Shown piece after piece: positions 905 through 39,533 of a stretch of DNA of 64,000 bases; position 1 is the stretch's first letter, and each line of letters opens with the position of its first letter. The notes below the pieces were generated by a model. It was not told the origin of the DNA and ran no database searches. It saw only the letters and a program-made list of their open reading frames with translations. A program made the translations under genes and the position numbers. Source of the DNA: Elusimicrobia bacterium GWB2_63_22 (lineage in GTDB: Bacteria; Elusimicrobiota; Elusimicrobia; Elusimicrobiales; UBA9959); NCBI GenBank assembly GCA_001799735.1, contig MGUA01000012.1, forward strand, positions 97,108 to 161,107, written 5' to 3'.

Positions 905-2872
905 CTAGATGAATTTTACCAGGAGGTTGAGGGCCGAGGCCAGCAGCAGCGCCGCGGCGAAGTTCATGGCGAAAACTTTAGAGGAATCCGCCGCGCCCAG
1001 CTCGCGCAGCGTGACCATGAAGCTGCCCAGGCAGGGCAGGTACAGGCTCAGGAAGACGCTGGCCACCACGATGGACGCCGGGGCCAGCGCGAACGGCGCC
1101 AGCATGGCGATGGAGACGTCCTTGCGCAGGAAGCCGAGCACCATGACGGAGACGGTCTCCTCCGGCAGGCCCAGCAGGCCCGTGACGGCCGGCCGGAAGA
1201 ACCGCGCCGCGCCCTCCAGCAGGCCGCTGTAGTCCAGCAGGCTGATCACCAGCACGCCGAAAACTATCATCGGCACCGCCTCGGTCAGGAAATCCTTTAT
1301 ACGGAAATAAAGTTTTTTCGCCAGGATATTGCAGCAGGGCGCCTGGTAAGGGGGGATCTCCAGGAACAGCTCCGGGGTCTCGCCTTTGAGCAGGCGGCTG
1401 AGCAGCAGCGAACTGACGATGCCCGCCGCCGCGATGGCCCCGAAGGCGGCGAGCGTGTACTTGATGCTGTAGGGCGCCAGCAGGCTGAGGATCATGGCCG
1501 TCTGCGGCATGCAGGGCGCCAGGCCCAGCGTCAGGGCTGTGGCGATCACCCTTTCGCGCCGGGTCTCCAGCACCCTTGTGGCCAGGATGGCCGGCACCTT
1601 GCAGCCCAGGCCCAGCATCAGCGGGATAGTGCCGTAGCCGTGCAGCCCCAGGCGGTGCATGGAACTGTCGAGCATCACCGCCAGGCGCGGCAGGTAGCCG
1701 ATGTCCTCCAGCAGGCCCAGCGCCGCGTAGAAGGAAACGATATAGGGCAGCACCGTGACGAAGGGGATATAGAGGCCCGTGGTCAGCAGGCCGAAGGATT
1801 CCATCGGGGCCGGGGTGGCGCCCAGCAGCATTACCTTGAAGAAAGTCCCGTCCTGCAGGCCGGAGAGAGCCGCGGTGACCAGCGGCATCCAGAGCGACTG
1901 GAACAGCGGGTCGAGCACGTGGTTGATGAGGCCTTCGCCGATAAAGCGGATTGTCCAGAAGACGGCCAGCATCACCAGGGCCGCGAAAGGCAGGCCGGTG
2001 TTGGGGCGGGAGGTGACGTCTTCGAGCTTCTCCAGTAGCGTGGCGTGCTTGTGGGTGATCTTCTGGCAGGCGGCCGAGATGCGCCCGATCAGGGCCCATT
2101 TCTCGTCGGGGTCGGCCGGCACTCCGGCGGGCGCGGGCAGGCGGCCGGCGTTAAAGTCCTCTACGGCGGTCTTAAGCCCGGAGAGGCCCTCGCCGGTGGT
2201 GGCTACGAAAGGCACTACGCGCAGGCCCAGCTGGCGCTCGAGCGCTGCGGCGTCAATGTCCACGCCGCGCCGGCGGGCGACGTCCCATTTGTTGAGCAGG
2301 ATCACCGTCGGGACGCCCAGGGCGGCCAGCTCCAGGGTGTAGAACAGGTTGCGCTCCAGGTTGGTGGCGTCGATGACGTTGAGTATGAGCGCTTTGTCCG
2401 GCTGAGCCAGGAGTTCCCGGGCCACTTCCTCGGCCTTGTTGGTGGCGGCGTGGCTGTAGGCGCCGGGCACGTCCACCACGGTAAAGCGTTCTCCGGCGAG
2501 CACGGTGTGCCCGGCCGTATATTCCACGGTGGTGCCGGGATAGTTGGAGGAGATCACCTCCAGCCCGGTGAGGCGGGAGAAGACTACGCTCTTGCCGACG
2601 TTGGGGTTGCCGGCCAGCAGCACTCTGCGGGACCTGGTCTTGACAGAGATCTTGCCGGCCATGCCGCGGCCCAGGGCGACGCGCGTGCCCATGACCTCCA
2701 CTACCACCGGCCCGCCCGAGCCTTCATGGGAGCGCTTGGTGATGTGCCGCCCGGCGTAAAGGCCCATCGCCTTCAGCTTGGCCTGGAAATTCTCTCCGCC
2801 GGCGACTTCGAAGATGTAGCCGGACTCGTTCTCGCGCATGGCGATCAGCGTGATCGGGGGGGAGGGCTTCAT
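905..2872 (-). CDS. feoB: Ferrous iron transporter FeoB with fused N-terminal FeoA domain
   Basis: 655-aa ORF. N-terminal FeoA-like SH3 segment (GYIFEVAGGENFQAKLKAMGLYAGRHI...VEVMGTRVALGRGMAGKISV). G-domain motifs GNPNVGKS, DVPG and NKWD, followed by a long polytopic membrane domain. ATGA overlap with the upstream regulator gene. Confidence 0.9.
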   Translation of the reverse strand: MKPSPPITLIAMRENESGYIFEVAGGENFQAKLKAMGLYAGRHITKRSHEGSGGPVVVEVMGTRVALGRGMAGKISVKTRSRRVLLAGNPNVGKSVVFSRLTGLEVISSNYPGTTVEYTAGHTVLAGERFTVVDVPGAYSHAATNKAEEVARELLAQPDKALILNVIDATNLERNLFYTLELAALGVPTVILLNKWDVARRRGVDIDAAALERQLGLRVVPFVATTGEGLSGLKTAVEDFNAGRLPAPAGVPADPDEKWALIGRISAACQKITHKHATLLEKLEDVTSRPNTGLPFAALVMLAVFWTIRFIGEGLINHVLDPLFQSLWMPLVTAALSGLQDGTFFKVMLLGATPAPMESFGLLTTGLYIPFVTVLPYIVSFYAALGLLEDIGYLPRLAVMLDSSMHRLGLHGYGTIPLMLGLGCKVPAILATRVLETRRERVIATALTLGLAPCMPQTAMILSLLAPYSIKYTLAAFGAIAAAGIVSSLLLSRLLKGETPELFLEIPPYQAPCCNILAKKLYFRIKDFLTEAVPMIVFGVLVISLLDYSGLLEGAARFFRPAVTGLLGLPEETVSVMVLGFLRKDVSIAMLAPFALAPASIVVASVFLSLYLPCLGSFMVTLRELGAADSSKVFAMNFAAALLLASALNLLVKFI

Positions 2873-3581: not shown

Positions 3582-4462
3582 CTCAGGGGTTCGGTCAGGT
3601 TGGAGAGGATCACGCTCAGGTCCTTCTCGCCGTAGCCGCTATTATAGGATTTAGAGAGCAGGCTTTCCACGGCGGCGGTCACCGGCAGCTCCATTTTCTT
3701 CTTCGCGGCCTCGGCCAGCATGAACCGGGCGTCCTTGAGCATGTGCTTGAGCGGGAAAGCCGGGGGGAAGTCCTTGTTGAGGATATTGTCCTTCTTGAGC
3801 GCGAAATAGCCGCAGTTCATGACGGGGTTCTTCTCCAGGGCTTCGAACACCAGAGCTGGCGCTATGCCCTGCGCCTCGGCCAGCGCGGCCGCCTCGGCCA
3901 GGGCCGTGGTGAGCTGCGCCACCACCAGGTTGACGCAGAGCTTGAGCGCGGTGCCGGCGGGGGGCTGTCCGGCGTAGATTATTGCCCGGCTCATGGCTTT
4001 CAGCACCGGGGAGAGTTTTTCCAGCAGCGGCTTTTCGCCGGCGGCCAGCAGCACCAGCTGGGCCTTTTCGGCGGCGCCCTTGGAGCCGGAGACCGGGCAG
4101 TCGAGGAATCCCACGCCGGCCGTGTAGCATTTCTTCGCCAGCGCGGCGGTGTAATCCGGCGAGAGGGTGCTCATGTTGATCAGGGTGTTGCCGCCGGCGA
4201 AGGCGGAGATGACGCCCTCCGGGCCTTCCATCACGGCGTCCATGGCGGCGTTGTCGGCCACCATGGTGATCACCAGGTCGCACATCTTGGCCAGCGCGCG
4301 CGGCGTGGAGGCCGTCTGGCAGCCGAGGTCGGCGAACTCCGTGGTGCGCTGGCGGGTGCGGTTGTAGACCGAGACCTGGAAGCCGGCCTTGACGAGGTTG
4401 AGGGCCATGGCCCTGCCCATGATGCCGAGGCCGATAAAACCTATCCGGGGGGGAACGCTCAT
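3578..4462 (-). CDS. NAD(P)-dependent beta-hydroxyacid dehydrogenase (3-hydroxyisobutyrate / 6-phosphogluconate dehydrogenase-like)
   Basis: 294 aa. N-terminal Rossmann motif IGFIGLGIMGRAMALNLVKAGFQVSVYNRT and a C-terminal all-helical domain typical of the family. AAGGAG RBS 7 nt upstream of the ATG. Confidence 0.85.
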   Translation of the reverse strand: MSVPPRIGFIGLGIMGRAMALNLVKAGFQVSVYNRTRQRTTEFADLGCQTASTPRALAKMCDLVITMVADNAAMDAVMEGPEGVISAFAGGNTLINMSTLSPDYTAALAKKCYTAGVGFLDCPVSGSKGAAEKAQLVLLAAGEKPLLEKLSPVLKAMSRAIIYAGQPPAGTALKLCVNLVVAQLTTALAEAAALAEAQGIAPALVFEALEKNPVMNCGYFALKKDNILNKDFPPAFPLKHMLKDARFMLAEAAKKKMELPVTAAVESLLSKSYNSGYGEKDLSVILSNLTEPLR

Positions 4463-5090: not shown

Positions 5091-6233
5091 ATGAGTTACT
5101 CGTTCATCGATAAACAGAAAGATTTTGACGAACTGTGCGTCAAGCTCGCCTCCCATAAGTACATCTCCATAGACACCGAGTCTAACAGCCTCTACGCCTA
5201 CAAGGAGAAGTTCTGCCTGATGCAGCTCTCCAGCGAGCATTCCAACGCGGTGATAGACACGCTCGCCGTGGACATCAGCCCCATCCTGCCTATTTTCGCC
5301 GACCCGGCGGTGGAGAAGATCTTCCACTCGGCCGATTCCGATATCCGCGTCTTCAAGGCCGCGATAAAGTGCTCCTTCGTCAATATTTTCGACGTGATGG
5401 TGGCGGCCAAGTACCTCGGCATCATAAAGTGCGGCCTCGACAATATGGTGAAGGAGTTCTTCAAGACGGAACTGAACAAGAAGTTCCAGAAGGCCGACTG
5501 GGGCCGCCGCCCGCTGACAAAAGAGATGCTGGACTACGCCAGCTGCGATACGGTGTATCTCAAGAAGCTGCGCGACCTGCTGGGCGCAGAGCTGGAAAAG
5601 AAGGGCCGCATGGAAGAGGCGATGAGCCAGTTCGCCCAGATTTGCAAGATCGAGCCTACCCCCATGCGCTTCGACGAGAGCGGCTTCCTGACGCTCAAAA
5701 GTGCGCGGCAGCTCAACGGGCGCGGCCTGGCCGTGCTGCGCGAGCTCTACATCGCCCGCGAGGTGGCGGCGATAAAGAAGAACACGCCGTCTTTCAAGGT
5801 GATCAGCGAGGACCTGATGCTGCGCCTGTCGGTGGCGCCGCGCGAGGGCCTGACCAATCTTTCTATTTTCAAGGGCGTCAGCGGCTACGTGCTGGCCAAC
5901 CACGGCGCCTGGATCCGCGAGGCGCTGCAGCGGGGCCTGAAGGCGCCGGAATACAACGTGCCGCGCCGGGAGATCTCCCGCGAGAAGCGCGCCTATTTCG
6001 AGTCCATCAAGACCCGTTTCAAGACCCTCAAGCTCTGGCGCAAGGAGACGGCGGTCCGCCGCAACATGCTGCCGGAGTCTATCCTGGGCAACGACGTGCT
6101 GGAGCGGGTGGCCCTGTCCCAGCCCAAGTCGCTCGAGGACCTGCTGGCCATCAAAGGCCTCGGCGCCGAAAAAGTCTCCCTCTACGGCTCCGAACTCCTC
6201 GCCTTCGTCAAAAAACACCACCCCAATAAATAG
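5091..6233 (+). CDS. rnd: Ribonuclease D (DEDDy 3'-5' exonuclease + HRDC domain)
   Basis: ExoI motif ISIDTESNSL, ExoII HSADSDIRVF, ExoIII YASCDTVYL, and a C-terminal HRDC-like helical region (ILGNDVLERVALSQPKSLEDLLAIKGLG). The track starts the ORF at 5073. ATG at 5091 (MSYSFIDKQ) is equally possible. Confidence 0.8.
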   Translation: MSYSFIDKQKDFDELCVKLASHKYISIDTESNSLYAYKEKFCLMQLSSEHSNAVIDTLAVDISPILPIFADPAVEKIFHSADSDIRVFKAAIKCSFVNIFDVMVAAKYLGIIKCGLDNMVKEFFKTELNKKFQKADWGRRPLTKEMLDYASCDTVYLKKLRDLLGAELEKKGRMEEAMSQFAQICKIEPTPMRFDESGFLTLKSARQLNGRGLAVLRELYIAREVAAIKKNTPSFKVISEDLMLRLSVAPREGLTNLSIFKGVSGYVLANHGAWIREALQRGLKAPEYNVPRREISREKRAYFESIKTRFKTLKLWRKETAVRRNMLPESILGNDVLERVALSQPKSLEDLLAIKGLGAEKVSLYGSELLAFVKKHHPNK

Positions 6234-6429
6234 CCTCGCGGTCAGGCTTGCCGCTCGCTCATAAGCGGGCGCGGCCGAAGAGGGCCTGCGGTCCTCCGCC
6301 GGCCTCGAACTCGCTCGGCACACAGTGCCTCGCTCAAACAATCTCGGCCGCAGCCCTAATGATAGGCTGTCCGCTGCGGACCTTGGCCCTGCGCCCTAAA
6401 ATCGCTCACGTCAAGCCTGACCGCGAGGC
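6233..6429. repeat. Perfect 18-bp long-range inverted repeat enclosing nested hairpins (noncoding)
   Basis: GCCTCGCGGTCAGGCTTG (6233-6250, begins in the rnd stop codon) is the exact reverse complement of CAAGCCTGACCGCGAGGC (6412-6429). Inside are smaller hairpins (GGCAC-ACA-GTGCC; CCGCAGC...GCTGCGG containing CCTA-ATGA-TAGG) and four TCGCTC motifs (6255, 6311, 6330, 6402). Confidence 0.6.
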
Positions 6430-6461
6430 ACCCTCCAACTATGGCGGTTCCGGCCTGACGC

Positions 6462-6576
6462 GGGTATAGGGGGTGGCAAAACCCTGTCGGAGGCCGAGGC
6501 TTGCGTAAGCGCCGAGGCCGAGACGGGGAGTGGCGAGCACGGTGTGCGAGACCACGTTTTTGACAACCCCTATGCC
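6462..6576. repeat. Imperfect ~21-bp inverted repeat enclosing a GC-rich structured segment (noncoding)
   Basis: GGGTATAGGGGGTGGCAAAAC (6462-6482) pairs with GTTTTTGACAACCCCTATGCCC (6556-6576) with 3 mismatches or wobbles. The interior has a GCTT-GCGT-AAGC hairpin flanked by duplicated GCCGAGGC. Confidence 0.45.
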
Positions 6577-6600
6577 CGTGGCAGGCCTGGCCCAGGCAGA

Positions 6601-8367
6601 TTAAAGTAACTTCTTTATGAGGTCCGGGCGGTTGATTTCGCGGAGGGCTTTGGTGATGAGGGGGCGGTTCTCGGGTTTGTAGTACTGGAGGAGCGCGCGC
6701 TGCATGCGGCGCTCGGTTTCTTTTTTGGGGACGTAGACCGGTTCGAGGGTGAAGGGGTCGAGGCCGGTGAAATAGATGGAGGTGGCGTATTCCATGGGGG
6801 CCGGCAGGAAGTCGTTGATCTGCTGCGGCCGGATGTTGCGTTCCTTCAGGAACACGGCGAGGTCGGCCATGTCCGCCAGCGTGGAGCCCGGGTGGGCCGA
6901 GATGAAATAGAGCACCAGGTACTGCTCCTTGCCGGCCTTCTTGGACTCGGCCAGGAACCTGTCCGCGAATTCCTTGAAGACCTCCACGGAGGGCTTCTTC
7001 ATCACCGACAGCACCTTCGGGGAGATGTGCTCCGGCGCGACCTTCAGCAGGCCGCCGGTGTGGAAGCGCGCGATCTCGGAGATATACTCACCGCATTTAA
7101 GCGCCAGGTCCATCCGGATGCCGCTGGCCACGAAAGCTTTCTTCAGACCCTTCACTCCGCGGATGCGGCGCATCAGCGCCAGCAGCGGCTTGTGGTCCGT
7201 GTTGAGGTTGGGGCAGATGACGGGGTGCACGCAGGATAATTTGCGGCAGGCGTGGCAGACTTTCATGTCCCGCCCGCGCATCTCGTACATGTTGGCCGAC
7301 GGGGCGCCCAGGTCCGAGATATTGCCCGGGTGGCGCGGGGTCTTAAGCAGGCGCTGCGCCTCCTGCTCCACCGACGCCGGAGAGCGGCTCTGGATGAAGC
7401 GGCCCTGGTGCAGCGTCAGCGAGCAGAACGAGCAGCCGCCGAAGCAGCCGCGGTGCAGCACGATGGAATCCTTGATCATCTCCAGCGCCGGGATGGGCTG
7501 CCGGTACGACGGGTGCGCGAGCTTGGTGAAAGGCAGCCCGTAGATAAAATCCATCTCTTCCGTGGACAGCGGCAGGGCGGGGGGATTCTGCACCACGGCC
7601 TTGCCCTCGCTCTTCTGCACCAGCACCGCCGCGTTGAAAGGGTTGGAATTCTCGTAGATAAGGCGGGTGGCCGTGGAGAATTTTATGCGGTCGCCCGCGA
7701 CCTCCCCGGCGGTAGGCAGCTCCACTGCGCCCGGTATGGCCAGGGCCGCGGTTTCCCTGGCGCCCAGCGGATAGGCCGTGCCGCGGATGTCGCGCAAATT
7801 AAGTATTGTGTCCCCGGAATTCAGGCGGGTGGAGATTTCGCGGATCTGGCGCTCGCCCATGCCGTAGACGAGGAGGTCGGCCTTGGAGTCCAGCAGCACG
7901 CTGTGGCGCACCTTGTCCGACCAGTAATCGTAATGCGCGAAGCGCCGCATGGTGGCTTCGATGCCGCCGATGATTACCGGCGCGTCCGGGTAGGCTTCCC
8001 GCGCCCGCTGCGAATAGATGATGGTGGCCCGGTCGGGGCGCAGGTTGGGGAGGGCGCCGGGGGAAAAATCGTCCGTGGACCGCAGCTTGCGGTTGTGGGT
8101 GTACTTGTTGATCATCGAGTCCATGTTCCCGGCTGAAACGCCGAAGAACAGGCGGGGCTTGCCGAATTTCCTGAAATCCGCGCAGTTGTCCCAGCGCGGC
8201 TGGGCGAGGATGGCCACCCGCAGGCCTTCGGCCTCCAGCACGCGGCCCACCAGGGCCATGGCGAAAGAAGGATGGTCCACGTATGCGTCACCGGTGACCA
8301 GGACCACGTCCACGGCGTCCCAGCCGAGGGCTTTGACTTCCTGAGGCGTAGCGGGAAGGAAACTCAT
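6601..8367 (-). CDS. ygiQ: YgiQ-family radical SAM protein (UPF0313)
   Basis: 588 aa. N-terminal VDVVLVTGDAYVDHPSFAMALVGRVLEAEGLRVAILAQPRW, characteristic of the YgiQ N-domain. Radical-SAM cluster motif CFGGCSFCS. Family-typical conserved C-terminal extension. Confidence 0.9.
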   Translation of the reverse strand: MSFLPATPQEVKALGWDAVDVVLVTGDAYVDHPSFAMALVGRVLEAEGLRVAILAQPRWDNCADFRKFGKPRLFFGVSAGNMDSMINKYTHNRKLRSTDDFSPGALPNLRPDRATIIYSQRAREAYPDAPVIIGGIEATMRRFAHYDYWSDKVRHSVLLDSKADLLVYGMGERQIREISTRLNSGDTILNLRDIRGTAYPLGARETAALAIPGAVELPTAGEVAGDRIKFSTATRLIYENSNPFNAAVLVQKSEGKAVVQNPPALPLSTEEMDFIYGLPFTKLAHPSYRQPIPALEMIKDSIVLHRGCFGGCSFCSLTLHQGRFIQSRSPASVEQEAQRLLKTPRHPGNISDLGAPSANMYEMRGRDMKVCHACRKLSCVHPVICPNLNTDHKPLLALMRRIRGVKGLKKAFVASGIRMDLALKCGEYISEIARFHTGGLLKVAPEHISPKVLSVMKKPSVEVFKEFADRFLAESKKAGKEQYLVLYFISAHPGSTLADMADLAVFLKERNIRPQQINDFLPAPMEYATSIYFTGLDPFTLEPVYVPKKETERRMQRALLQYYKPENRPLITKALREINRPDLIKKLL

Positions 8368-12384: not shown

Positions 12385-15300
12385 ATGAAACTGCTGCTTT
12401 CCATACTGCTGCTTATGCCCGGGTTCTGTTACGGAGCTGGCCTGCCGGAAGCCGACCGCTTTTTTGAAAAAGGACTTTACGAAGAAGCGCTGAAGATCTA
12501 CTCCTCGTCCGCCGCCGCCGCGGGGCCGGAGGCCCTGAAGGCCGCCTACCGCGCGGCCGAATGCGAAGCGCTGCTTTTCCGCTACGCCGAGGCTGCCGGG
12601 CGCCTGAACGCGCTTAAGCTGCCGCCGGACCCGCTCTGGCAGGGCCGCCTGCTCCTCCTGCGCGCCGGCGCCGGCGAGCAATTCCTCGCCCATTACGGCT
12701 ATTCGCTGCCGGCCGACGAGCAGAAGGGCACCCGGGACGTCACCAAGTTCACCAGGGCTCAGTGGGACAGGCTGATAGACGCCGATTACGCCTCCCTCTG
12801 GCCGCTGCGCCACGAGCTTCTCAAATACCCGCTCGCCAAACAGGGCTATTTCATCGGCCTGAAGGACGCCACGCTGGACTATACGCCCACCCTGTGGCAT
12901 TTCGCCGTGCTGCGTTGGGGCGAGCGCCTGCTGTCTTCCGTGGGCTACGTCGACACCCTGCCCGAGGCGGCCCTCTTCGTCGCGCCGGAGTATAGCCGCG
13001 ACTATTCTCCCTCCGCCTCTCCCGCCGAGCGCGCGGCCGCCTTGTTCGAATCGCTGGCGGCCGGCGAAGGCTTCGCCGCCGAGCATTGGCGCCTGCGCCG
13101 GCTGCTGATCGCCATAGAGCACAGCGGCGCCGTGCCCAGCCCAGTAGAGAAAACGGTGCGCGCGGCCGCGGAAGAAAAGGCGGTGCGCGCCGCCGCGCTG
13201 GCCACGCTGAAAGGCTGGGGCCGGACCTTTAAAACCCCGCTCGGCCGGGCCTGGGCGCTGCTGCGCGCCGCCTGGCTGCTCAACGAAGGAGAGGAATTTA
13301 AAGAAGCGGTGGACCTCTGCCTGAAGGCCGAGAAGGAGGCCCCCGGTTCCAACCCGGCGGCCCATTGCGCCGGGCTGCGCCTGAGCATTGAGACCCCCGA
13401 ACTGGCACTGATCCCTTCTTTCTCCCTGCCGCCCGGCAAGGGCGCCGTAAAGGTGCGGGCCCGCAACCTGCCCGAGGTGTATCTCCGTGCCTACCGCACC
13501 ACGCCGGAGGAGCTGGCCTCCCTGTCCAGGGACCGGGGCAACGGCTGGGGCGCGCTGCGCTACCTGGGTGCCGAGGCCGCGCGCGCTTTCCTGGCGCGCA
13601 CGCCGGACCTGCGCTGGAGCGTCCGCCCGCAGTACCCCGCGCCGTACCAGCGCCGGGAGCAGGCGGCACCGCCGCCTCCGATGAAGAAGGGCGTCTACGT
13701 GGTGATCGCCTCCGGCGACTCCGGCTTCGAGGACGGCTCCTCGCTGCTCAGCGCCGCCTCGGTGAATATCACCGACGTGCTGCTGATGGGCACCGCCGGC
13801 CTGGCCGGCGACCCCGAGGCTTTTCTCTACGATCCCGCGCTGCCCGCCCGGCAGTCTGGCGGGGACCTGTTCCGGCTTTACGCCGTGGACGCCGTGAGCG
13901 GCCGCCCTCTGGCCGGCGCCCCGATAGACGCCTACCTTAACAGGGCGCACGGCGACTGGGAGCGCGTGCCGCTGCGCACCGGGCCCGACGGCGCGGCCGG
14001 GCTGTCGGCGCCCCTGCGGCTGGCCTATCCCGCCCATCAGAGTTTCTCGCTGGACCCGCTGCTCGAGCACGCCGGCGCCTACGCCTACTGGGGCAATTAC
14101 GCTTCGGCTTCTTTCTCCCTGCCGCAGCCGGTGTCCCTCTTCCTGGAGACCGACAGGCCGGTCTACCGGCCGGGCCAGGAGGTGAAGTTCAAGGTTACGG
14201 CCCTGCTGCGCGAGCCGCGCGGCTACCGCGTCTACGACGGGAGAGAACAACTGGCCGTGACGGTGCGCGACGCCAACTGGCAGGAACTTTATTCAAAGAA
14301 ACTTCCGGTGACCGGCCTCGGCAGCGCCGCCGGCTCGTTCACGGTGCCGGCCGGCCGGCTGCTGGGCCGCTACACCGTTACGGCGACCCTGCGCGAGTAC
14401 GGCTATAACTTCAGCGGCTCGGCTACCTTCGGCGTGGAGGAGTACAAGCGCCCCGAGTTCGAGGTGCAGCTGGCCGCCGCGGAGAAGCCCTACCGCTACG
14501 GCGTCCCCGCCGAGATAACCGGCTCCGCTAAATATTATTTCGGCTCGCCGGTGCCCGGGGCCGCGGTGAAATATCGCGTGACCCGCCACCGCTATATCCC
14601 CTGGTACTGCTGGTACTGGCGCTGGTTCTACTCCGATACCGGCCCTGTGGAGGCCGCCGCGGGGGAGACTAAAACCGGCGACGACGGCAAGTTCTCCTTC
14701 AGCTTTACGCCCGCGCCCGAGAGCGGCGCCTACGCCGACTACCCGGCCGCCTATACGGTGGAGGTGGAGGCCCGGGACGCCGGCGGCAGGACCATAAAGG
14801 ACAGCCGTTCCTACCGCGCCGGCGCCAAGGCTTATGCTTTCGACGTGACGCCGGAGGCCGGCTTTTTTACTCCCGGCAAGCCGGCCGCCCTGAAGGCCCG
14901 CCTGATGGACCTCAACGACGCGCCGCAGGATGGCAGCGCGCGCTATTACGTCTATAAACTGGAAGGGGAGCCTGCCGAAGCCCCTGCCCGGTCCCGGCTG
15001 AGCCGGTATCTCTCTTTCGACCAGAACCCGTCGCTGGAACAGGCTTTCTCCAAAGTCCCCGACGGCCCGCTGGCCGACTCGGGGGAGATAAAGTTCTCCA
15101 AGGACGCGCCGGCCCGGCTGAACCTCAAAGCCCTGCCGCCGGGGGCCTACCGCCTGCGGCTGAAGGCCGGAGACCCGTGGGGCGGCGAGAGCGCCTCCGA
15201 GCTGGTAATAGTTTCCGCCGCCAGGGAGGCCGGCCGGAACAGGGCGCTTAAGCTGCCGCCGGTGGCACTGTTCGAGTACGGCTCGTATAAGCCCGGCGAG

Positions 15301-18300
15301 ACCGCCAGGGTGCTGATAGGCGCCTCCGCGCTGAAGGGAGCTAAATTCGTGGAGCTGACGGCCGGCGCTTTTGTGCTGGCGCGCGAAACCCTGGCCGAGG
15401 GCGGGCTTTCCGTCTACGGCGTTAAGGTGGGAGCGCAGCACGCCGGCGGTTTCGGCCTGCGCTGGCTGGGCGCCGGGGATTTTAAATTCTACTCCGCGGT
15501 GTCCGACGCCCGCGTGCCGCGCGACGACAGGGGGCTGTCGCTGGAGATGGACTATGCCAAGGTGCTGGCCCCCGGCCAGCGGGCCAACTGGGCGCTGAAA
15601 GCCAGGGACGCCGCCGGCCGGCCAGTTTCCGGCGAGGCGCTGGTAAAGATCTTCGACCGCTCGCTGGAGTACTACGCCGCCGACGCCGGCTTCTGGGGAG
15701 CTGTGCTCTACCCGGACCGGCGCACTTCCGGAGCCGGGCAGTCTTCCCTTTTTACACCGCACGCGCTGCAGCTGCCGGTAAAGGACAGGGTAGCGTCGCG
15801 CTACCGCGCTTTGCGCGCCGCGGTCTTGGCGGAAAACCTGCCGTCCCTGCGCCTCGCCCGGGCCGGTTACAGCGCCGGGGGCGGGGGCAGGATGTACGCC
15901 AAAGGCCTGATGATGGAGGCCGACGGGGCTTCCCTCTCCGGCGGCTTCGCCGCCAGGGAGAACAGCGTGGGCGCCGTACGCGGCTCCATGGCCAAGGCCA
16001 CGATGGCGGCCCCCGGCAGCCCGGCTGACGAGGTGCAGGAGCTGGGAGCGATCAGGGACACATCCTGGGCCCCGGAGCCCGAAGTGCAGGCCCGCAAGGA
16101 CTTCTCCGAGACCGCCTACTACGAACCCCAACTGAAGGTGCTTAACGGGGAGGGGAAATTCTCTTTCAAGATCCCCGAGCGGCTCACCGCCTGGAAAATA
16201 TCCTCGTACGTGCTGACGCGCAGCGCCGCGCGCGGCTCTTTCTCGGCCGAAACCGTAACGAAGAAAGACCTGATGGTCCGCCTCGACATCCCCCGCTTCT
16301 TCCGCGAGGGAGACCGCTCCCGCCTGACCGCGCTGGTCACCAACGACACGGCGGAGAACCTGGCCGGGGAAGTCACCCTGGCTATAACTCTCGACGGTGA
16401 GGACGCCGCCGGCAGGTTCAAGGCCGGCGAGGCCCGCCTGCCTTTCACGGTAAAGCCGCACGGCACCGCCTCCGTGTACTGGGAGATAGAGGCGCCGCGC
16501 GGCACGGCCGCCTACAAGGTGCGGGCGGTGGCCCGCTCCGGGCGGCTGGCCGACGCGCAGGAGAACGACCTGCCGGTGCTGCCGTCGCGCGAGCGCCTGA
16601 TCGCTTCCTCGGTGGCCGCGCTGGACGGCGCCGCCTCTAAAACTTTCCGGCTGGCCGAACTGGAGGCCGCCGACAGTTCGCGGGAGGTGGAGTCCCTGCA
16701 CCTGGAGGTGCAGCCGCAGCTTATCCTCACCGTGCTCAACAGCCTGCCCGCGCTGGTGCGCTATCCCTACGAGTGCACCGAGCAGCTGATGAACCGCTAC
16801 GTACCGCTGGCCATAGTGAACGGCTTCTACAACAAGTACCCGGCGCTGCGCGCCGCGGCCGCCAAGGTGCCCAGACGCACAACCCTTACCCCGGCGTGGG
16901 AGCGGGACAATCCCGTGCGCCTGATGGCGCTGATGGAAACACCCTGGGAGCAGGACTCCAAGGGGCGCAGTTCACGCCTGGACGCTACCGATATGCTGGA
17001 CCCGAAGCTGGTGGGAGGAGAGCGCGAGGCCGCCTTCGCCAAGCTGAAGACCTACCAGAACGCAGACGGCTCCTTCCCGTGGTTCCCCGGAGGGCGCCCC
17101 AGCCTCTACATGACCCTCTACGCGCTGGAGGGGCTGGCCGAGGCCTCGCGCTACGGCGTGGCTATACCGGAGGACATGGCCCGGCGCGCGCTGGCCTACG
17201 TTATCTCCGAGATCCCGGCCCACATGAAGGCGGACGAAGAGCATCTCTCCCTGTCCCTGTACGGGGCTTACGTGATCACCTCGTTCCCCAAAGCCTGGCC
17301 CGAAAGCCGGACGGCCCTGGCCTACGCCAAGAGCTGGGCCGACTACGCCGACAAGCATGCCGCCGCCCTGACGGCTTTCGGCAAGGCCTACGCGGCCTAT
17401 GTCTACCTGCGCCTCGGCGAGAAAGCCAAGGCCGGGAGCTACCTGGACCGCGCCATGGACGGGGCCCGCTCCGACGATATAGCCGGCGTGTACTGGACCC
17501 CGGAGAAGATCTCCTGGCTGTGGTATAACGACACGGTGGAAAAGCACGCCTTCATCCTGAGGACCCTGCTGGCGCTGCGGCCCGCCGACCCGAAGATCCC
17601 CGGGCTGGTGCGCTGGCTCCTCTTCAACCGCAAGGCCGGCGAGTGGAAGTCCACCAAGGCCTCGGCGGCGGCCATCTACTCGCTGCTCGACGTCATGAAG
17701 ACCAGGGGCGCCCTGGATAACCCCGACAGCTACGCGGTTAAATTCGGAAAAACCGACCAGGCGCTGGAACTGCAGCCTTTCGACTGGATAGGCAGCCCGC
17801 TGCGCTGGTCCAAGTACGGCGCCGAGACCGCCGAGAAAGGCGCCCTGCGGCCTTCCGTCTCCAAGCGAGGACCGGGCCTCGCCTTCGCGTCCTTTACCGG
17901 CATCTATACCACGGAAAAACCGGCGGAAGAATCTCCCGCCGGCATGATGAACGTGTCGCGCTCCTACTTCCTGCGCGAAAAAGACGGCAAAGGCTACTCC
18001 CTAAAGCCCTTGGCCTCCGGAGACACCGTGGCCGTGGGCGACCAGGTGGAAGTGCAGCTTACCGTCGCCACCCGCAGCCAGTTCGAGTACGTGCACCTCA
18101 AGGACCCCAAGCCGGCCGGCTTCGAGGCGGAGGAACTCAACAGCGGCTGGAAATGGGAACAGCTGTCCCGCTACGAGGAGCCGCGCGACTCGCTGACCAA
18201 CTTCTTCATGGAATGGCTGCCGCACGGCGAGTACGTGCTCAAATACCGCCTGCGCCCCACCGTCCCCGGCAAGTTCCGGCTCGGCGCCGCCGTAATGCAG

Positions 18301-18360
18301 TCCATGTACGCCCCCGAGTTCGCCGCCCACTCCGCCGGCATGCTCATCAACGTGAAGTAG
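12385..18360 (+). CDS. Bacterial alpha-2-macroglobulin family protein (thioester-containing, 1991 aa)
   Basis: Signal peptide MKLLLSILLLMPGFCYGA. ~450-aa helical/TPR-like N-terminal extension. Multiple macroglobulin-like beta domains (e.g. VSLFLETDRPVYRPGQEVKFKV). Thioester motif C-T-E-Q in YPYECTEQLMNRY. Alpha/alpha-toroid TED region and a C-terminal MG8-like domain. Confidence 0.9.
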   Translation: MKLLLSILLLMPGFCYGAGLPEADRFFEKGLYEEALKIYSSSAAAAGPEALKAAYRAAECEALLFRYAEAAGRLNALKLPPDPLWQGRLLLLRAGAGEQFLAHYGYSLPADEQKGTRDVTKFTRAQWDRLIDADYASLWPLRHELLKYPLAKQGYFIGLKDATLDYTPTLWHFAVLRWGERLLSSVGYVDTLPEAALFVAPEYSRDYSPSASPAERAAALFESLAAGEGFAAEHWRLRRLLIAIEHSGAVPSPVEKTVRAAAEEKAVRAAALATLKGWGRTFKTPLGRAWALLRAAWLLNEGEEFKEAVDLCLKAEKEAPGSNPAAHCAGLRLSIETPELALIPSFSLPPGKGAVKVRARNLPEVYLRAYRTTPEELASLSRDRGNGWGALRYLGAEAARAFLARTPDLRWSVRPQYPAPYQRREQAAPPPPMKKGVYVVIASGDSGFEDGSSLLSAASVNITDVLLMGTAGLAGDPEAFLYDPALPARQSGGDLFRLYAVDAVSGRPLAGAPIDAYLNRAHGDWERVPLRTGPDGAAGLSAPLRLAYPAHQSFSLDPLLEHAGAYAYWGNYASASFSLPQPVSLFLETDRPVYRPGQEVKFKVTALLREPRGYRVYDGREQLAVTVRDANWQELYSKKLPVTGLGSAAGSFTVPAGRLLGRYTVTATLREYGYNFSGSATFGVEEYKRPEFEVQLAAAEKPYRYGVPAEITGSAKYYFGSPVPGAAVKYRVTRHRYIPWYCWYWRWFYSDTGPVEAAAGETKTGDDGKFSFSFTPAPESGAYADYPAAYTVEVEARDAGGRTIKDSRSYRAGAKAYAFDVTPEAGFFTPGKPAALKARLMDLNDAPQDGSARYYVYKLEGEPAEAPARSRLSRYLSFDQNPSLEQAFSKVPDGPLADSGEIKFSKDAPARLNLKALPPGAYRLRLKAGDPWGGESASELVIVSAAREAGRNRALKLPPVALFEYGSYKPGETARVLIGASALKGAKFVELTAGAFVLARETLAEGGLSVYGVKVGAQHAGGFGLRWLGAGDFKFYSAVSDARVPRDDRGLSLEMDYAKVLAPGQRANWALKARDAAGRPVSGEALVKIFDRSLEYYAADAGFWGAVLYPDRRTSGAGQSSLFTPHALQLPVKDRVASRYRALRAAVLAENLPSLRLARAGYSAGGGGRMYAKGLMMEADGASLSGGFAARENSVGAVRGSMAKATMAAPGSPADEVQELGAIRDTSWAPEPEVQARKDFSETAYYEPQLKVLNGEGKFSFKIPERLTAWKISSYVLTRSAARGSFSAETVTKKDLMVRLDIPRFFREGDRSRLTALVTNDTAENLAGEVTLAITLDGEDAAGRFKAGEARLPFTVKPHGTASVYWEIEAPRGTAAYKVRAVARSGRLADAQENDLPVLPSRERLIASSVAALDGAASKTFRLAELEAADSSREVESLHLEVQPQLILTVLNSLPALVRYPYECTEQLMNRYVPLAIVNGFYNKYPALRAAAAKVPRRTTLTPAWERDNPVRLMALMETPWEQDSKGRSSRLDATDMLDPKLVGGEREAAFAKLKTYQNADGSFPWFPGGRPSLYMTLYALEGLAEASRYGVAIPEDMARRALAYVISEIPAHMKADEEHLSLSLYGAYVITSFPKAWPESRTALAYAKSWADYADKHAAALTAFGKAYAAYVYLRLGEKAKAGSYLDRAMDGARSDDIAGVYWTPEKISWLWYNDTVEKHAFILRTLLALRPADPKIPGLVRWLLFNRKAGEWKSTKASAAAIYSLLDVMKTRGALDNPDSYAVKFGKTDQALELQPFDWIGSPLRWSKYGAETAEKGALRPSVSKRGPGLAFASFTGIYTTEKPAEESPAGMMNVSRSYFLREKDGKGYSLKPLASGDTVAVGDQVEVQLTVATRSQFEYVHLKDPKPAGFEAEELNSGWKWEQLSRYEEPRDSLTNFFMEWLPHGEYVLKYRLRPTVPGKFRLGAAVMQSMYAPEFAAHSAGMLINVK
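16774..16785 (+). other. Thioester-forming CTEQ codons of the alpha-2-macroglobulin
   Basis: tgc acc gag cag, in frame with the start at 12385. CxEQ is the established thioester motif of A2M/C3 family proteins. Confidence 0.8.
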
Positions 18361-18381
18361 GAGCAAGCATTTAAACCAGCG

Positions 18382-18496
18382 GGCTGGCCGGGGTATCACC
18401 CCGGGCACCCGTTGGGGAAGGGGGGCCCCGCTTCGGGGGGGAACCGCGCAACGGTTCCCTGCAGTCCGGGTGAACGGGGTGATACCCCGGTCAGCC
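18382..18496 (+). repeat. Structured intergenic element, copy 1 (22-bp closing stem + conserved 56-nt core)
   Basis: 5' arm GGCTGGCCGGGGTATCACCCCG (18382-18403) pairs with 3' arm CGGGGTGATACCCCGGTCAGCC (18475-18496), with one G-T position. The core 18412-18467 is identical to 40879-40934. An outer TTTAAAC/GTTTAAA extension lies at 18370-18376 and 18504-18510. Located 22 nt after the A2M stop. Confidence 0.7.
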
Positions 18497-18505
18497 CCAG
18501 ACTGT

Positions 18506-18841
18506 TTAAAAGCGGCGGAAGATGAAGGTGTTCTTGGAACCGAAAGAGAGGAATTTGAACAGCACGAAGAAGAGGGCGGCGCCGGCGAGCAGCAGCGGTA
18601 TGCCCAGGATGGCGCCGATCACCGTGGAGGTCAGCAGCGCCCCGGCCATCACCAGGCCCAGCGCCAGCAGCCCCACCCCGGCGGCGACCAGCATCTTGAG
18701 CCGCGTGAACAGCCCCGGCTTTTCGGGAGGGGGAAAACCCCGCCCCGGGCCCGGGCCGGCGGAACGGAAGCCGCCTTCGCCCGGGCGCACCAGCTCCGGC
18801 TCCACGCAGTCTTCGGTCACCGTCACGCGCCTGTCAGTCAT
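18506..18841 (-). CDS. Small hypothetical membrane protein (111 aa)
   Basis: I use the internal ATG at 18841 (MTDRRVTVTEDC...). The upstream part of the 205-aa track ORF runs antisense through the AT-rich promoter gap and into the start of the + strand gene at 18918. The C-terminal half contains two hydrophobic helices (MLVAAGVGLLALGLVMAGALL; GAILGIPLLLAGAALFFVLF). Confidence 0.5.
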   Translation of the reverse strand: MTDRRVTVTEDCVEPELVRPGEGGFRSAGPGPGRGFPPPEKPGLFTRLKMLVAAGVGLLALGLVMAGALLTSTVIGAILGIPLLLAGAALFFVLFKFLSFGSKNTFIFRRF

Positions 18842-36236: not shown

Positions 36237-39200
36237 CTACCTGGAGCCCAGCTCCAGCTCGGCGGCGGTTTCTTTTCCTCCGGAGAGGAAGGTGATGCTT
36301 ACCTTCTGCCCGGGGGAAAACTTTTTGAGGGCTTCGGAATACGCCTTAAGCCCCTCGACGGGGACGCCGCCGATGGCCGTTACCACGTCGCCGGCCTTGA
36401 AGGCGGTCCTGGAGAGCGGGGAGCCGGGGGTCACTTCCTGCGCTCGCACGCCGGGGCCGGCAAAGGAAAAATCCGGGACCAGCCCGGTGGAGGCCCGGCG
36501 CGGGCCGGACCCGCTGCCCGCCGCCGGCGCGCCGGAAGGGCGGGTCAGGAAGTCGGACTCTCCGGCCAGGTAGTCTATGATCTCTTTTGCGAACTCGGCC
36601 TGCCGCACTATGCCGGCGGCGTCTATCCTGTCGGCCGTATCCGACGGCTTGTGGTAGTCGGCGTGCGGCCCGCTGAAGAACTGCACGGCCGGGATGCCCG
36701 CCTCTATGAAGCTGGCCTGGTCGCTGGAGTCCAGGTCCTCCTTGACCAGGTCGTAGGCCGAGCCGGTAACAAAGCCCGCCCCGCGGAAGATATGGACCCA
36801 TTTGTCAGAAGAGCCGGAGCCGAGCACTAAGATTTTCCCGCTCCCGAGGCGGCCGACCGTGTCAAAGTTGAGCGCCGCGTTGACCTTGGCCTTGCCGTCG
36901 GGCGGCAGCGCCTTCAGGAAAGCCCTGGAGCCCAGGCGCCCGCCCTCCTCCCCGTCGAAAGCCGCGAATATTATGGAGCGCTCGGGCCTGCGGGCGCCGT
37001 AGTAGCGCGCCAGCTCCAGCAGCAGCGCCACACCGGAGGCGTTGTCGTCCGCGCCGGGAAAGACCTGCCCGTCCTTAGCCGGCAGGTGGTCGTAATGAGC
37101 GGAGAGTACGACGTACTCATCTTTTTTTGAGGTTCCTTCTACGACCCCGACGACATTGCCCTGCCCTGACCTGGCGTACGGCTTGAGCCCGGCTTTGACT
37201 AGCGCGGCGTTCACTGATTTTTTCGCCGCCAGGTGGCCCGGGGTGCCGGGGGCCCTGCCGCCCTTGACCGAGGAGAGGGCGCGCACGTCGGCCAGGACGC
37301 GGCTTGCCGAGAAGAGAGAGGGAAGTTCCGCCAGCGGGGCGCGTGCGGGATAATTGCGGGCCGGTGCTCCGCCGGGCCCCGGGAGGGGCACGGCCAGCGG
37401 CGAACCGGCGGCGGTCCAGACGCCGGAGGCGGCGGCGGCCATGTTCTCGTCGAAGACCAGCCAGGAGTACTTGCCGTAATGCGGCAGCTTGGCGGCCAGC
37501 AGGGGCAGCTTCTCCGGCGTGCCGGAGACAACCAGGGCCCCCGAGAAGGCCGGGTCGGCCTGGTTAAAGGCCGCGAAGACGAAGGTGTGCCCCGCGCGCG
37601 GGAAGCGGCGGTTCTCGAGCGTGACGGAGTCGGGAGTAAAGACGGCCCCGTAAGCGCCGAGGGCGGCCTCGAAAGCAGGCGCCAGGAGGTTGCCGCCGCC
37701 GAAGATCCAGTAGGACGAGGCCGGGGGAGCGGAACTCTCGTCGTCGCCGGAGACGGCCGGGAGGTTCTCTTTATCCTTGTTCCAGGCGGCGGCCAGCGCG
37801 CGCCACGGGGCGCCCGCCGCGCCGGCGGGTACGATGACGTCCGGCTTGACCGCGCCCAGCAGGCGCGAGAGCGTGGGAGGAGTTTCCAGGGGGCTGAGCC
37901 GCCGGAACAGGTCGAATTCAGGGTCTATCTCCAGGCGCACGGGGCGCAGCAGGGCCGAATTGTAATGGTAGGTTTCCTCTTTGGACTTCATCGTGAGGGT
38001 CTTCATCCGGGGGGCCTCGACGCCCTCCAGGTAGATGACGGACGGAACTTCCAGCTCGTAGGCTGGTCCGTCCTGCGTCTGGGCCAGGGTGAACTCCAGG
38101 TCGTAGCCGAACTGGCCCTTGGTCAGGTTGACGCTCTTTATGGCCAGCGCCGGCGCGCCCGCGCGCGCGGTCCACTGCTCGAAGAAAGGCTTAAGCCGGC
38201 CTGGGCCGGTGACTTTTTCAAAAGCCTGGCGCAGCTGGGCGAACCCCGCGGTATTGAATTTATTGGCGGCGTAAAAACCGCGCAGGCCCTTGCGGAAGCC
38301 CTCGTCGCCCAGCAGGCGGCGCAGCATATGGTAGAACATCAGGGCTTTGCCGTAGCCGACGGCTTCCGATGCCGAGGAATGGCGCGAGCGGAATTCCGTA
38401 AGCGGGAAATCCTTGCCCCCGCGCACGTAGTCCGAATACTTCTGCAGGGTGGTCATCCTGTAGTCGGTCCCCTTGCCTCTGTTCTCGGCTATAAGGTAGT
38501 CGGCCAGGTAGGCGGTCAGCCCTTCGCACCAATTGCCCTTCTCGTAGTCCACAAAAACGCCGTTGCCCCACCAGTTATGCAGGATCTCGTGCGGGTAGGA
38601 GCTGTTGATGATGAAAGGCAGGCGCAGCACCTTGGTCCCGAGCAGGGTAAAAGAGGGCATGCCGTAGCCGGTCTCCCAGAAATTCTCGACGAGGGCGAAC
38701 TTCCCGTAAGGATACGGTCCGATCAGGCCGGAATAGAGCTTGATATAGCGGCCGGTGGCCTCCAGGTATTTGTCGGCCAGCGCCTTGTCCGGCGTGAGCA
38801 GAAAGGCCTGGGAGGTAACCGGGCCCCCGTCCAGGGAGTACTCCGCGTAGCGGCCGCAGGTGAGGGTTATCTCGTCCTGCGGGGCCGCCGTCTCCCAGAC
38901 GGAAACGTTACTGCCGGCCAGAGACTTCCGAGAAGAGCGCGCGCCGCCGGCCACCGAGTCGTAGGGCGCCGGGAGCTCGGTCCTGAGGCGGAAAGAGACC
39001 AGCTCTTTTTCGAAGACCGGGTACCAGCCGGAGGAGCCGGAGAGGTAGCAGCCGGCGGGGGAGATGACTCCGGGAGTTTCGGAGAAGCTGCGCGCGTAAT
39101 CCTGCGCCTGCTCGCCGGGCGCGTGGCTGATGACGCCGGAATAGTTGAGTGTAAAACGGTCCGCCGGCGCGGGCAGGGTAAGGCGGTAGGCGGAGTAGAG

Positions 39201-39461
39201 GCCGGCGGCGGAGGAGAAGTTTATGCCGTAGGAGGCGGCCGCGGCCAGGCCCAGCTCTTCCAGTTTTCCGGCGCTTGCGGACGGGGCCAGCCCCTTGTGC
39301 AGGGAGAAGACATGCTCGGCCGAGGGGGAGGGGAAGGAGACCGTGTCCTTGGCGGTTATCCCGCCGGAGGCCGGGTCCAGGCTGACGCTGAGGTCGTGGC
39401 GGACGGCGGCCGCGGCGGGCAGGGCGCAAAGCAGCAGGAGGGACGGGAGAAAAAATTTCAT
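36237..39461 (-). CDS. Exported tri-domain peptidase: M1 aminopeptidase-like + M28 aminopeptidase-like + PDZ (1074 aa)
   Basis: True start is ATG 39461 (MKFFLPSLLLLCALPAAAA signal peptide). M1 gluzincin signature HEILHNWWGNGVFVDYEKGNWCE (HExxH-x18-E, HEILH at 38577-38591). M28 motifs VLSAHYDHL, DDNASGVALLLELAR and FDGEEGGRLGS. C-terminal PDZ (GVRAQEVTPGSPLSRTAFKAGDVVTAIGG). The 1577-aa track ORF extends it artificially, antisense through deoB. Confidence 0.85.
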   Translation of the reverse strand: MKFFLPSLLLLCALPAAAAVRHDLSVSLDPASGGITAKDTVSFPSPSAEHVFSLHKGLAPSASAGKLEELGLAAAASYGINFSSAAGLYSAYRLTLPAPADRFTLNYSGVISHAPGEQAQDYARSFSETPGVISPAGCYLSGSSGWYPVFEKELVSFRLRTELPAPYDSVAGGARSSRKSLAGSNVSVWETAAPQDEITLTCGRYAEYSLDGGPVTSQAFLLTPDKALADKYLEATGRYIKLYSGLIGPYPYGKFALVENFWETGYGMPSFTLLGTKVLRLPFIINSSYPHEILHNWWGNGVFVDYEKGNWCEGLTAYLADYLIAENRGKGTDYRMTTLQKYSDYVRGGKDFPLTEFRSRHSSASEAVGYGKALMFYHMLRRLLGDEGFRKGLRGFYAANKFNTAGFAQLRQAFEKVTGPGRLKPFFEQWTARAGAPALAIKSVNLTKGQFGYDLEFTLAQTQDGPAYELEVPSVIYLEGVEAPRMKTLTMKSKEETYHYNSALLRPVRLEIDPEFDLFRRLSPLETPPTLSRLLGAVKPDVIVPAGAAGAPWRALAAAWNKDKENLPAVSGDDESSAPPASSYWIFGGGNLLAPAFEAALGAYGAVFTPDSVTLENRRFPRAGHTFVFAAFNQADPAFSGALVVSGTPEKLPLLAAKLPHYGKYSWLVFDENMAAAASGVWTAAGSPLAVPLPGPGGAPARNYPARAPLAELPSLFSASRVLADVRALSSVKGGRAPGTPGHLAAKKSVNAALVKAGLKPYARSGQGNVVGVVEGTSKKDEYVVLSAHYDHLPAKDGQVFPGADDNASGVALLLELARYYGARRPERSIIFAAFDGEEGGRLGSRAFLKALPPDGKAKVNAALNFDTVGRLGSGKILVLGSGSSDKWVHIFRGAGFVTGSAYDLVKEDLDSSDQASFIEAGIPAVQFFSGPHADYHKPSDTADRIDAAGIVRQAEFAKEIIDYLAGESDFLTRPSGAPAAGSGSGPRRASTGLVPDFSFAGPGVRAQEVTPGSPLSRTAFKAGDVVTAIGGVPVEGLKAYSEALKKFSPGQKVSITFLSGGKETAAELELGSR

Positions 39462-39533
39462 GCGGGCTCCGTGTTTTAAATGACCGCTTAACTTATTACA
39501 ATATATTACAACTTTCAGCCGAACGGAGGCTTC

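Follow-up and report, generated by a model that had tools for sequence, protein, structure and literature searches.

Element A, a dispersed intergenic hairpin of Elusimicrobia with a conserved single-stranded fold, is probably a REP/MITE-like palindromic repeat

The stretch of DNA analysed here (the window) comprises 64,000 nucleotides (nt) of contig MGUA01000012.1 from Elusimicrobia bacterium GWB2_63_22, and carries two copies of a large hairpin, named element A. This is probably a non-autonomous dispersed palindromic repeat, resembling repetitive extragenic palindromes (REPs) and MITEs (miniature transposable elements with inverted repeats), whose single-stranded fold is conserved. Element A is previously undescribed, lineage-specific, non-coding and probably selfish, belongs in the class of REPs and bacterial interspersed mosaic elements (BIMEs), ERIC, Correia and bcr1, and amounts to well over a hundred copies scattered between Elusimicrobia genes. 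A preliminary description of the window, made from the sequence alone, had named a REP/MITE-like palindrome among several candidate identities, and this is the candidate favoured by copy number, by occurrence in both orientations and by presence/absence variation. The traits found that resemble those of MITEs are small size, lack of coding capacity, multiple copies and insertion polymorphism; the inverted arms are long but are the most variable part of the element, and the outer consensus that they share is short (GGAGGGG...CCCCGAC). The reading as a dedicated regulatory RNA of 3' untranslated regions (3' UTRs) is not supported.

The two window copies share a 56-nt core, TTGGGGAAGGGGGGCCCCGCTTCGGGGGGGAACCGCGCAACGGTTCCCTGCAGTCC, whose only two occurrences in the window, at 18412-18467 and 40879-40934, lie on the + strand with 0 mismatches between them, against 0 expected in shuffles. 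This exact match was part of the preliminary description, which was also right that the closing stems differ in sequence between the copies and yet are complementary within each (23 bp in both), and that G·T, as read on the + strand, accounts for all non-Watson-Crick positions (a single one in copy 1, two in copy 2). Its size of ~115 nt has to be corrected: the hairpin itself stands, but the covariance model of the family (R1) spans 18378-18505 and 40846-40972 (Table 1), the match to copy 1 covering model positions 1-138. With a repeat finder the arms extend to 31 nt in copy 1 (90% complementary) and 26 nt in copy 2 (88%). Copy 1 folds at -98.1 kcal/mol on the + strand (z = -8.2) and -89.2 on the - strand (z = -6.8), and copy 2 at -94.5 (z = -6.4) and -84.5 (z = -4.8), so that in both the + strand fold is ~9-10 kcal/mol more stable. 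A search of the window with R1 found no further copies beyond these two plus weak reverse-strand echoes.

The extent of the family was gauged by exact match of the 21-nt P4 hairpin of the core, GGGAACCGCGCAACGGTTCCC, in one genome per species, which returned at least 106 stretches in 25 metagenome-assembled genomes (MAGs), with at least 18 in the single genome of GWA2_62_23. Among the matches listed, all are in MAGs labelled Elusimicrobia, Elusimicrobiales or Elusimicrobiaceae, or in unlabelled MAGs of the same studies, and no copy was found in the viral contigs searched. The related loci that were compared are labelled L002 to L137. At gathering thresholds Rfam 15 gave 0 matches in the window and, in 14 related loci, a single tRNA; at E up to 10 there were only chance matches over the element, one of them to a microRNA that scored 28.5 bits where the threshold is 268. 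This agrees with the earlier statement that no known RNA family was recognised. Nothing relevant came up when the literature was searched for repeats of Elusimicrobia or for the core sequence. Neither Rfam nor the searchable literature has the element A family, though the kind of element is one already known.

Copies of element A are 125-145 nt long and were compared in a sequence-only MAFFT alignment of 99 full copies (A1) and a model-fitted alignment of 108 copies (A2). The fold is a long stem (P1, P2) closing a three-way junction, which is made up of a G-rich strand, a variable hairpin (P3) and the near-invariant hairpin P4. P1 (~23 bp) and P2 (6 bp) are both variable in sequence across the family, and between them A1 shows a recurrent interruption by tandem mismatches, G·A/A·G or else G·A, G·A. 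At the outer end 5' GGAGGGG faces 3' CCCCGAC, giving G-C, A·G, G·A and G-C, within a family-wide arm consensus of GGAGGGG-CGGCC-GGGGTRTT...CCCC-GAC. The unpaired G-rich strand TTGGGGARGGGRGG has columns that are invariant or at least 90% conserved in the 99 copies. P3 exists in at least four unrelated sequence types of 4-11 bp and is directly abutted by P4 (GGGAACCG-CGCAA-CGGTTCCC), which is followed by a subfamily-specific 3' junction, J4/2 (TGCAGTCC, CTCTGCCC, ATCTTCC or GGGTC), and in some subfamilies there is an additional 3' tail, GACTGGGCATCTCGCGG. Both alignments show conservation to be highest at the centre and lowest in the arms.

Some copies depart from this layout. L064 (651-822) and L098 (4299-4470) carry an extra hairpin of ~35 nt (GGTGACTATTTCGCGTTAGCGAAATAGTCAC then TGCAGTG) between the G-rich strand and P3, which has the look of a nested insertion or of a J4/2 region duplicated in part. 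In the long P3 types the loop, ...ATAATTTCCCAAG..., contains a TTCCC complementary to the GGGAA of the G-rich strand (GGGGAA at 18414-18419 in the window), and the short P3 type of both window copies is without this TTCCC loop. From this complementarity a pseudoknot between the GGGAA of J2/3 and the loop of long P3 is possible, with both partners invariant and beyond the reach of covariation.

The stems of element A covary strongly. In A1, 88.4% of cells are paired (70.7% in shuffles), 689 cells are changed on both sides (199 in shuffles), both-sided changes are seen in 32 of the 44 pairs, and the covariation score is 0.425 against 0.13 when shuffled and 0.07-0.14 in slid controls. The corresponding values in A2 are 92.6% paired (~70% in shuffles), 896 cells (230 in shuffles), 37 of the 44 pairs, and a score of 0.517 against 0.133 shuffled and 0.07-0.11 slid. 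Covariation in A2 extends to 23/23 pairs of P1, 6/6 of P2 and 7/7 of P3, the last being 97.4% paired. The invariance of P4 is an ascertainment effect, as P4 was the search pattern. Those variants of P4 that were seen keep the helix, through a compensated insertion of an A-T pair in L067 (GGGAAACCG/CGGTTTCCC) and as GGAAACC/GGTTTCC in L003 and L107, and one P4 pair has changed from G-C to A-U in four copies.

Mismatches in the stems are of the G·U type in 169 cases and of the A·C type in 73, where mutation alone predicts a ratio of 1:1. The bias is present after clustering at 70% identity (52 vs. 28) and within P1 (144 vs. 38), and it is found whether copies are sense (49:32) or antisense (54:24) to both flanking genes, as well as at convergent sites (43:8). 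It goes with the strand of the element itself and is independent of the direction of host transcription; as it is kept in sense and antisense copies alike, the G-rich strand is therefore the strand whose folding matters. Compensated stems and strand-specific wobble, first remarked on in the two window copies, hold across ~100 copies. They had been taken as the signature of selection on RNA structure, and of this the conserved single-stranded fold is upheld, being the conserved feature of element A, but use of that fold by the host as RNA is not something that covariation shows.

Element A is located in intergenic spacers as single dispersed copies. Between co-directional genes 35 copies are sense and 30 antisense, and 21 copies lie at convergent gene ends as against six at divergent ones; in either orientation the gene upstream in transcription usually has its stop codon within ~20 nt of the element. 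The flanking genes are unrelated, including hydEFG, etfB, purN-like, nifS-like, bacterial microcompartment (BMC) shell, ABC ATPase, recN-like and alpha-2-macroglobulin (A2M) genes, and beside the nifS-like, BMC-shell and hydE genes the element is sense in one genome and antisense in another. The preliminary description had considered a cis RNA borne by 3' UTRs, and had named equal orientation relative to transcription as an outcome that would count against a structured RNA. The orientations are indeed near equal (35 vs. 30), orthologous spacers are filled in opposite directions, and the wobble bias ignores host transcription, all of which speak against such an RNA. In L067, two copies of different subfamilies, at 1739-1876 (-) and 1900-2042 (+), stand head to head 23 nt apart in a BIME-like cluster.

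Comparison of orthologous sites revealed considerable turnover. The hydG-hydE spacer is empty, with a length of 7 nt, in L010 and L097, and holds element A sense in L012, antisense in L102 and as a truncated remnant in L023. The neighbouring hydE-hydF spacer is filled in L012, L097 and L102, is occupied in L023 by a second repeat family (element B, described below), and in L010 contains an internal-deletion remnant joined at a short GGCCCCG repeat. Amongst 44 metagenomic loci orthologous to the end of the A2M gene, element A is present in two (sense in L137, antisense in L107); elsewhere this site has an empty spacer that leaves 6 nt between the two stop codons (L108, L111), a plain terminator in the element's place (L110), a truncated element A (L112) or element B instead (L109, L113, L114). 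When copies at orthologous sites were set against each other (28 pairs), identity was 70-96% for the flanking proteins and 38-93% for the stems, with 147 double changes that keep pairing and 27 that break it. Divergence on this scale suggests that copies were replaced by other members of the family, no less than that they were compensated step by step.

Copies of element A that are truncated or have lost an internal part were observed in L016 (4703-4770), L021 (3050-3097), L074, L112 (~3700-3860) and L010 (3412-3509), and are often joined at short G/C-rich direct repeats. Their sequences indicate decay by slippage-type deletion. Among the matches to the R1 model, no copy of element A was found split around an open reading frame (ORF).

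If element A is a mobile palindromic repeat, the lineages that keep spreading would have to fold as the G-rich + strand, tolerating G·T or G·U but not A·C. The conserved junction would then most likely be the recognition site of a trans-acting mobilising enzyme working on a single-stranded intermediate. A structure-specific enzyme of this sort is suggested because the junction is invariant, non-Watson-Crick motifs are present, the G·U bias keeps to the strand of the element itself and target-site duplications were not detected: in 99 copies, for k = 3-6 and all fixed offsets, none rose above shuffled flanks. The absence of a detectable duplication fits models of single-strand mobilisation, of which the REPs and their paired form (REPINs) with the REP-associated tyrosine transposase (RAYT), or the ends of IS200/IS605 with their Y1/HUH transposases, would be examples. 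Single-stranded DNA (ssDNA) would be the more economical guess for the folded strand recognised during spread, an RNA intermediate being the alternative. A more specific proposal, which we put forward tentatively and consider rather unlikely, is that the junction, with its G-rich strand, CGCAA-loop hairpin and tandem G·A, is the docking site of a dedicated protein that reads single strands, forming a new partnership of repeat and enzyme. Such a partnership could persist vertically, as in REPIN-RAYT but with the opposite layout, and mobilisation could proceed via ssDNA or even RNA; the same factor may also act on element B, which has the same design and a loop motif of the ACGCAAG type. Wherever it is co-transcribed, whichever way it lies, element A would furnish 3' UTRs and operon spacers with a hairpin of -85 to -98 kcal/mol, and by analogy with REP, ERIC and Correia its uninterrupted 23-bp duplex would likely be a barrier to 3' exonucleases and a substrate for RNase III, probably as a side effect.

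Several points weigh against element A being a mobile repeat of this class. The element's ends are not base-precise, which may have concealed a duplication if it is short (2-3 bp) or variable. The pairing kept at orthologous sites could, judging from the copies compared, reflect host selection for the hairpin, which is inseparable from turnover there. The layout is the reverse of that of REPINs and MITEs, with the centre conserved and the arms least so, and the analogy is therefore to a class and not to a family. A tblastn search with the Escherichia coli RayT against ~1.03 Mb of Elusimicrobia DNA gave a best E of 0.06, although with low power, as this is a small fraction of the 25 genomes. 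Lastly, the orientation of copies relative to local GC skew (58 negative, 35 positive, p ~0.014) is only weakly biased and is confounded with gene strand (r = -0.48 between skew and gene strand), and no conclusion is drawn from it.

The main rival to a mobile repeat is a cis-acting RNA selected by the host in 3' UTRs and operon spacers, a near-palindrome that stabilises the upstream message or directs its processing whichever way it lies. The very stable folding of both strands agrees with this, as do the placement of copies no more than ~20 nt from the upstream gene's stop codon in both orientations, their persistence at orthologous sites with pairing kept, and the position of copy 2 between a stop codon and the true terminator, hence inside the 3' UTR. 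Such a role is nonetheless unlikely, being weakened by the empty and decayed alleles: the orthologous spacers of close relatives are often empty (6-7 nt), so the element is dispensable there, and internally deleted remnants are tolerated. A plain hairpin would, moreover, leave unexplained both the near-invariant asymmetric core and the own-strand G·U bias of antisense copies, and the neighbouring genes are functionally unrelated. An RNA independent of the flanking genes, either a multicopy small-RNA gene or a protein-binding RNA with its own + strand promoter, would account for the RNA-like three-way junction, the own-strand bias and the conserved non-Watson-Crick motifs, yet it is very improbable given that no conserved promoter-like or terminator-like signal flanks the copies and that the element often fills the entire spacer from stop codon to next start. 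Small-RNA genes also do not typically decay by deletion or number several per 64 kb.

Long inverted arms, small size, lack of coding capacity, high copy number and presence/absence polymorphism would all be expected of a classical MITE, with arms serving as terminal inverted repeats bound by a DDE transposase and insertion producing a target-site duplication. There is, however, no duplication at a fixed offset in the 99 copies, where the 4-6-mers shared between flanks match those of shuffled flanks, no transposase-bearing parent turned up in the loci examined, and the arms are the least conserved part, covarying instead of keeping a binding sequence. Recognition of a double strand does not predict a strand-specific wobble bias either, and this explanation appears quite unlikely. 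It has little probability, too, that the complementarity of the arms is kept by mutation alone, through template switching, hairpin-templated repair of quasi-palindromes or gene conversion among copies: equal numbers of G·T and A·C mismatches would then be expected, but the ratio is 2-4 to 1, and the conserved unpaired junction and the tandem G·A motifs would lack an explanation. Stems at orthologous sites (38-93% identical) are far more divergent than the flanking proteins (70-96%), with many double changes at once that resemble wholesale replacement, and a mutational mechanism may contribute alongside selection. The identical core and different stems of the window copies could also suggest that a short mobile core has entered the loops of hairpins, such as terminators, that the host already had. 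Empty orthologous sites are 6-7-nt spacers without any hairpin, and the arms have a family consensus, with subfamilies common to unrelated loci and genomes; these two observations rule out a core dropped into host hairpins and leave that origin with next to no probability.

Comparable elements are known from several bacteria. ERIC or IRU (127 bp, enterobacteria) and Correia or NEMIS (100-155 bp, Neisseria) are MITEs that form hairpins when transcribed, lie in 3' UTRs and operon spacers, and affect mRNA stability and processing. Element A is like them in size, in its long hairpin and in its location, but they have conserved terminal inverted repeats, TA duplications and copies that differ mainly by point mutations, whereas element A has compensated stems around an invariant three-way junction. 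The attC sites of integrons are conserved in structure and variable in sequence, have conserved end motifs (RYYYAAC/GTTRRRY), fold from one specific single DNA strand and are found downstream of ORFs; they form arrays in one orientation beside an integrase, unlike the single copies of element A, in both orientations and in housekeeping operons. An attC identity was rejected on the lack of arrays, the single copies in both orientations and the lack of an Rfam signal, the R''/R' core sites not having been scanned for. The ends of IS200/IS605 and their derivatives without an ORF (palindrome-associated transposable elements, PATEs) carry subterminal hairpins recognised on one DNA strand, make no target duplication and have no inverted terminal repeats in the sense of transposase binding. 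Their insertion sites lie 3' of a fixed tetra- or pentanucleotide, and the hairpins at their two ends differ, in contrast to the single large hairpin of element A, in whose flanks no conserved target motif was evident on inspection, no formal test having been made. Group II intron domain V, HDV-like, hammerhead and twister ribozymes, as well as fragments of the signal recognition particle RNA or RNase P, were considered and rejected for want of defining motifs or an Rfam signal.

By analogy, the closest precedent for element A would be bcr1, and the closest mechanistic model REP/REPIN with RAYT. The bcr1 element of the Bacillus cereus group (~155 bp) is a mobile repeat whose structure at the RNA level is kept by compensatory changes (PMC3184786). 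Both it and element A are chromosomal, intergenic and multicopy, with a distribution that is not conserved between relatives and with compensatory changes (PMC3184786). They differ in that bcr1 has 5-bp terminal direct repeats and known transcription, no duplication having been found for element A, and in that bcr1 has no sequence similarity to element A and comes from another phylum. REPs are biased to convergent gene ends (PMC3184786), and REPINs fold as hairpins in ssDNA or mRNA and are the replicative unit, dependent on RAYT (PMC3116915). Element A shares with these repeats the extragenic location, the bias to convergent ends, occurrence in both orientations, mosaic clusters with other repeats, hairpins in ssDNA or mRNA, the lack of target duplications and the non-autonomous nature (PMC3116915; PMC3184786). 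A REP is, however, a unit of 20-40 nt, and in a REPIN it is the arms, themselves REPs, that are conserved and the spacer less so, as opposed to the conserved centre and covarying arms of element A. From bcr1 and REPINs alike, element A differs in being most conserved at its central three-way junction, with arms that need only pair.

These findings are cautionary for RNA discovery, as textbook covariation and a strand-specific G·U bias can arise from a dispersed repeat that ignores host transcription, and no 3'-UTR hairpin should pass for a regulatory RNA until orientation and empty sites have been tested. They also describe an abundant repeat system in an uncultivated phylum, comprising a third palindrome and at least two families that covary (A and, by eye, B), whose mosaic clusters have landed again and again in the same spacers, those of the hydGEF hydrogenase-maturation operon among them. 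By analogy with other repeats, hairpins of ~-90 kcal/mol with a 23-bp duplex in operon spacers would likely affect mRNA processing. The layout of element A (invariant junction, free arms, no duplication, own-strand wobble) points to structure-specific handling of a single strand, making Elusimicrobia genomes a reasonable place to seek a new HUH-type or other mobilisation enzyme that reads hairpins. The covariance model R1 is usable for masking or annotating element A.

Table 1. Positions of the parts of element A and of a nearby terminator, numbered from the first letter of the window.
Feature	Position	Strand	Details
Copy 1 of element A, full length	18378-18505	+	R1, 122.4 bits, E = 1e-25
Copy 1 P1, 5' arm GGGCTGGCCGGGGTATCACCCCG	18381-18403	+	Pairs with 18475-18497, 23 bp with one G·T; sequence, inverted repeat
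Copy 1 GG-opposite-AA mismatch	18404-18405 vs. 18473-18474	+	Sequence
Copy 1 P2, 5' strand CACCCG	18406-18411	+	Sequence
Copy 1 J2/3, unpaired conserved G-rich strand TTGGGGAAGGGGGG	18412-18425	+	Column conservation
Copy 1 P3 hairpin CCCCGCTTCGGGG, short type	18426-18438	+	
Copy 1 P4 hairpin GGGAACCGCGCAACGGTTCCC	18439-18459	+	8 bp, loop CGCAA; pattern of the genome scan
Copy 1 J4/2 TGCAGTC	18460-18466	+	Sequence
Copy 1 P2, 3' strand CGGGTG	18467-18472	+	Sequence
Copy 1 AA facing GG	18473-18474	+	Sequence
Copy 1 P1, 3' arm CGGGGTGATACCCCGGTCAGCCC	18475-18497	+	Sequence, inverted repeat
Copy 2 of element A, full length	40846-40972	+	R1, 113.9 bits, E = 9e-24
Copy 2 P1	40849-40871 with 40942-40964	+	23 bp, two G·T
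Copy 2 P2 region, G·A-rich	40872-40878 with 40935-40941	+	
Copy 2 core	40879-40934	+	P3 40893-40905, P4 40906-40926
Canonical bidirectional intrinsic terminator, separate from element A	40990-41019	both	12-13-bp stem, T-runs

Genes in the window were called with a best-suffix codon log-odds caller and checked against Pfam. Copy 1 begins 21-22 nt past the stop of the A2M gene (12385-18360, +) and ends 7-8 nt short of the stop of a small membrane ORF (18506-18826, -); it is thus flanked by convergent genes, between which a terminator scan found no intrinsic terminator. Copy 2 begins 86 nt past the stop of a deoB-like metalloenzyme gene (39534-40763, +), and 26 nt downstream of its stem starts the terminator of Table 1, beyond which lies a convergent DUF4015 gene. 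The gene calls and the terminator scan agree with the context given in the preliminary description (A2M and deoB, both +, with copy 1 between convergent genes and without a terminator). Its suggestion that the element doubles as a terminator failed, as there is no U-tract after the hairpin in either orientation, copy 2 lies upstream of a separate terminator, and in L110 a plain terminator replaces the element. Element A is not a terminator, because it has no U-tract and separate terminators stand beside it.

Long antisense frames around copy 2 are a typical artefact of high GC content and can mislead strand calls. An open frame of 1577 codons (36237-40970, -) runs antisense through the deoB-like gene and copy 2; the real gene within it is the 3' part only, ~36237-39461, with peptidase M1, M28 and PDZ domains, and the + strand ORF at 37233-39479 is spurious.

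Element B, the second structured repeat family, occurs in the window at 6447-6592 (-), and at least 21 copies are present in the Elusimicrobia DNA examined. It has long variable arms around a conserved core, ...GCGCACACCGTGCGC...CTCGGCCTCGGCGCTTACGCAAGCCTCGGCCTCCGAG..., and its small stems show apparent covariation by eye (GCGC/GCGC vs. GGCC/GGCC). Further copies are at L023 (5030-5180), L054, L109, L113, L114 and L137, and element B lies directly 5' of element A in L002, L007, L041, L042, L058, L059, L081, L089 and L093. In several genomes the two make up a composite repeat of ~330 nt, and in others element B takes up the same spacers as element A. A third palindrome, at 6233-6429 in the window, has 21-nt arms (GCCTCGCGGTCAGGCTTGCCG / CGTCAAGCCTGACCGCGAGGC) that are 95% complementary and 155 nt apart; an exact match to these arms was sought in the other loci and none was found. 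It adjoins element B in the convergent spacer between the genes at 5091-6233 (+) and 6601-8313 (-), and it is with element B and this palindrome that element A clusters in mosaic.

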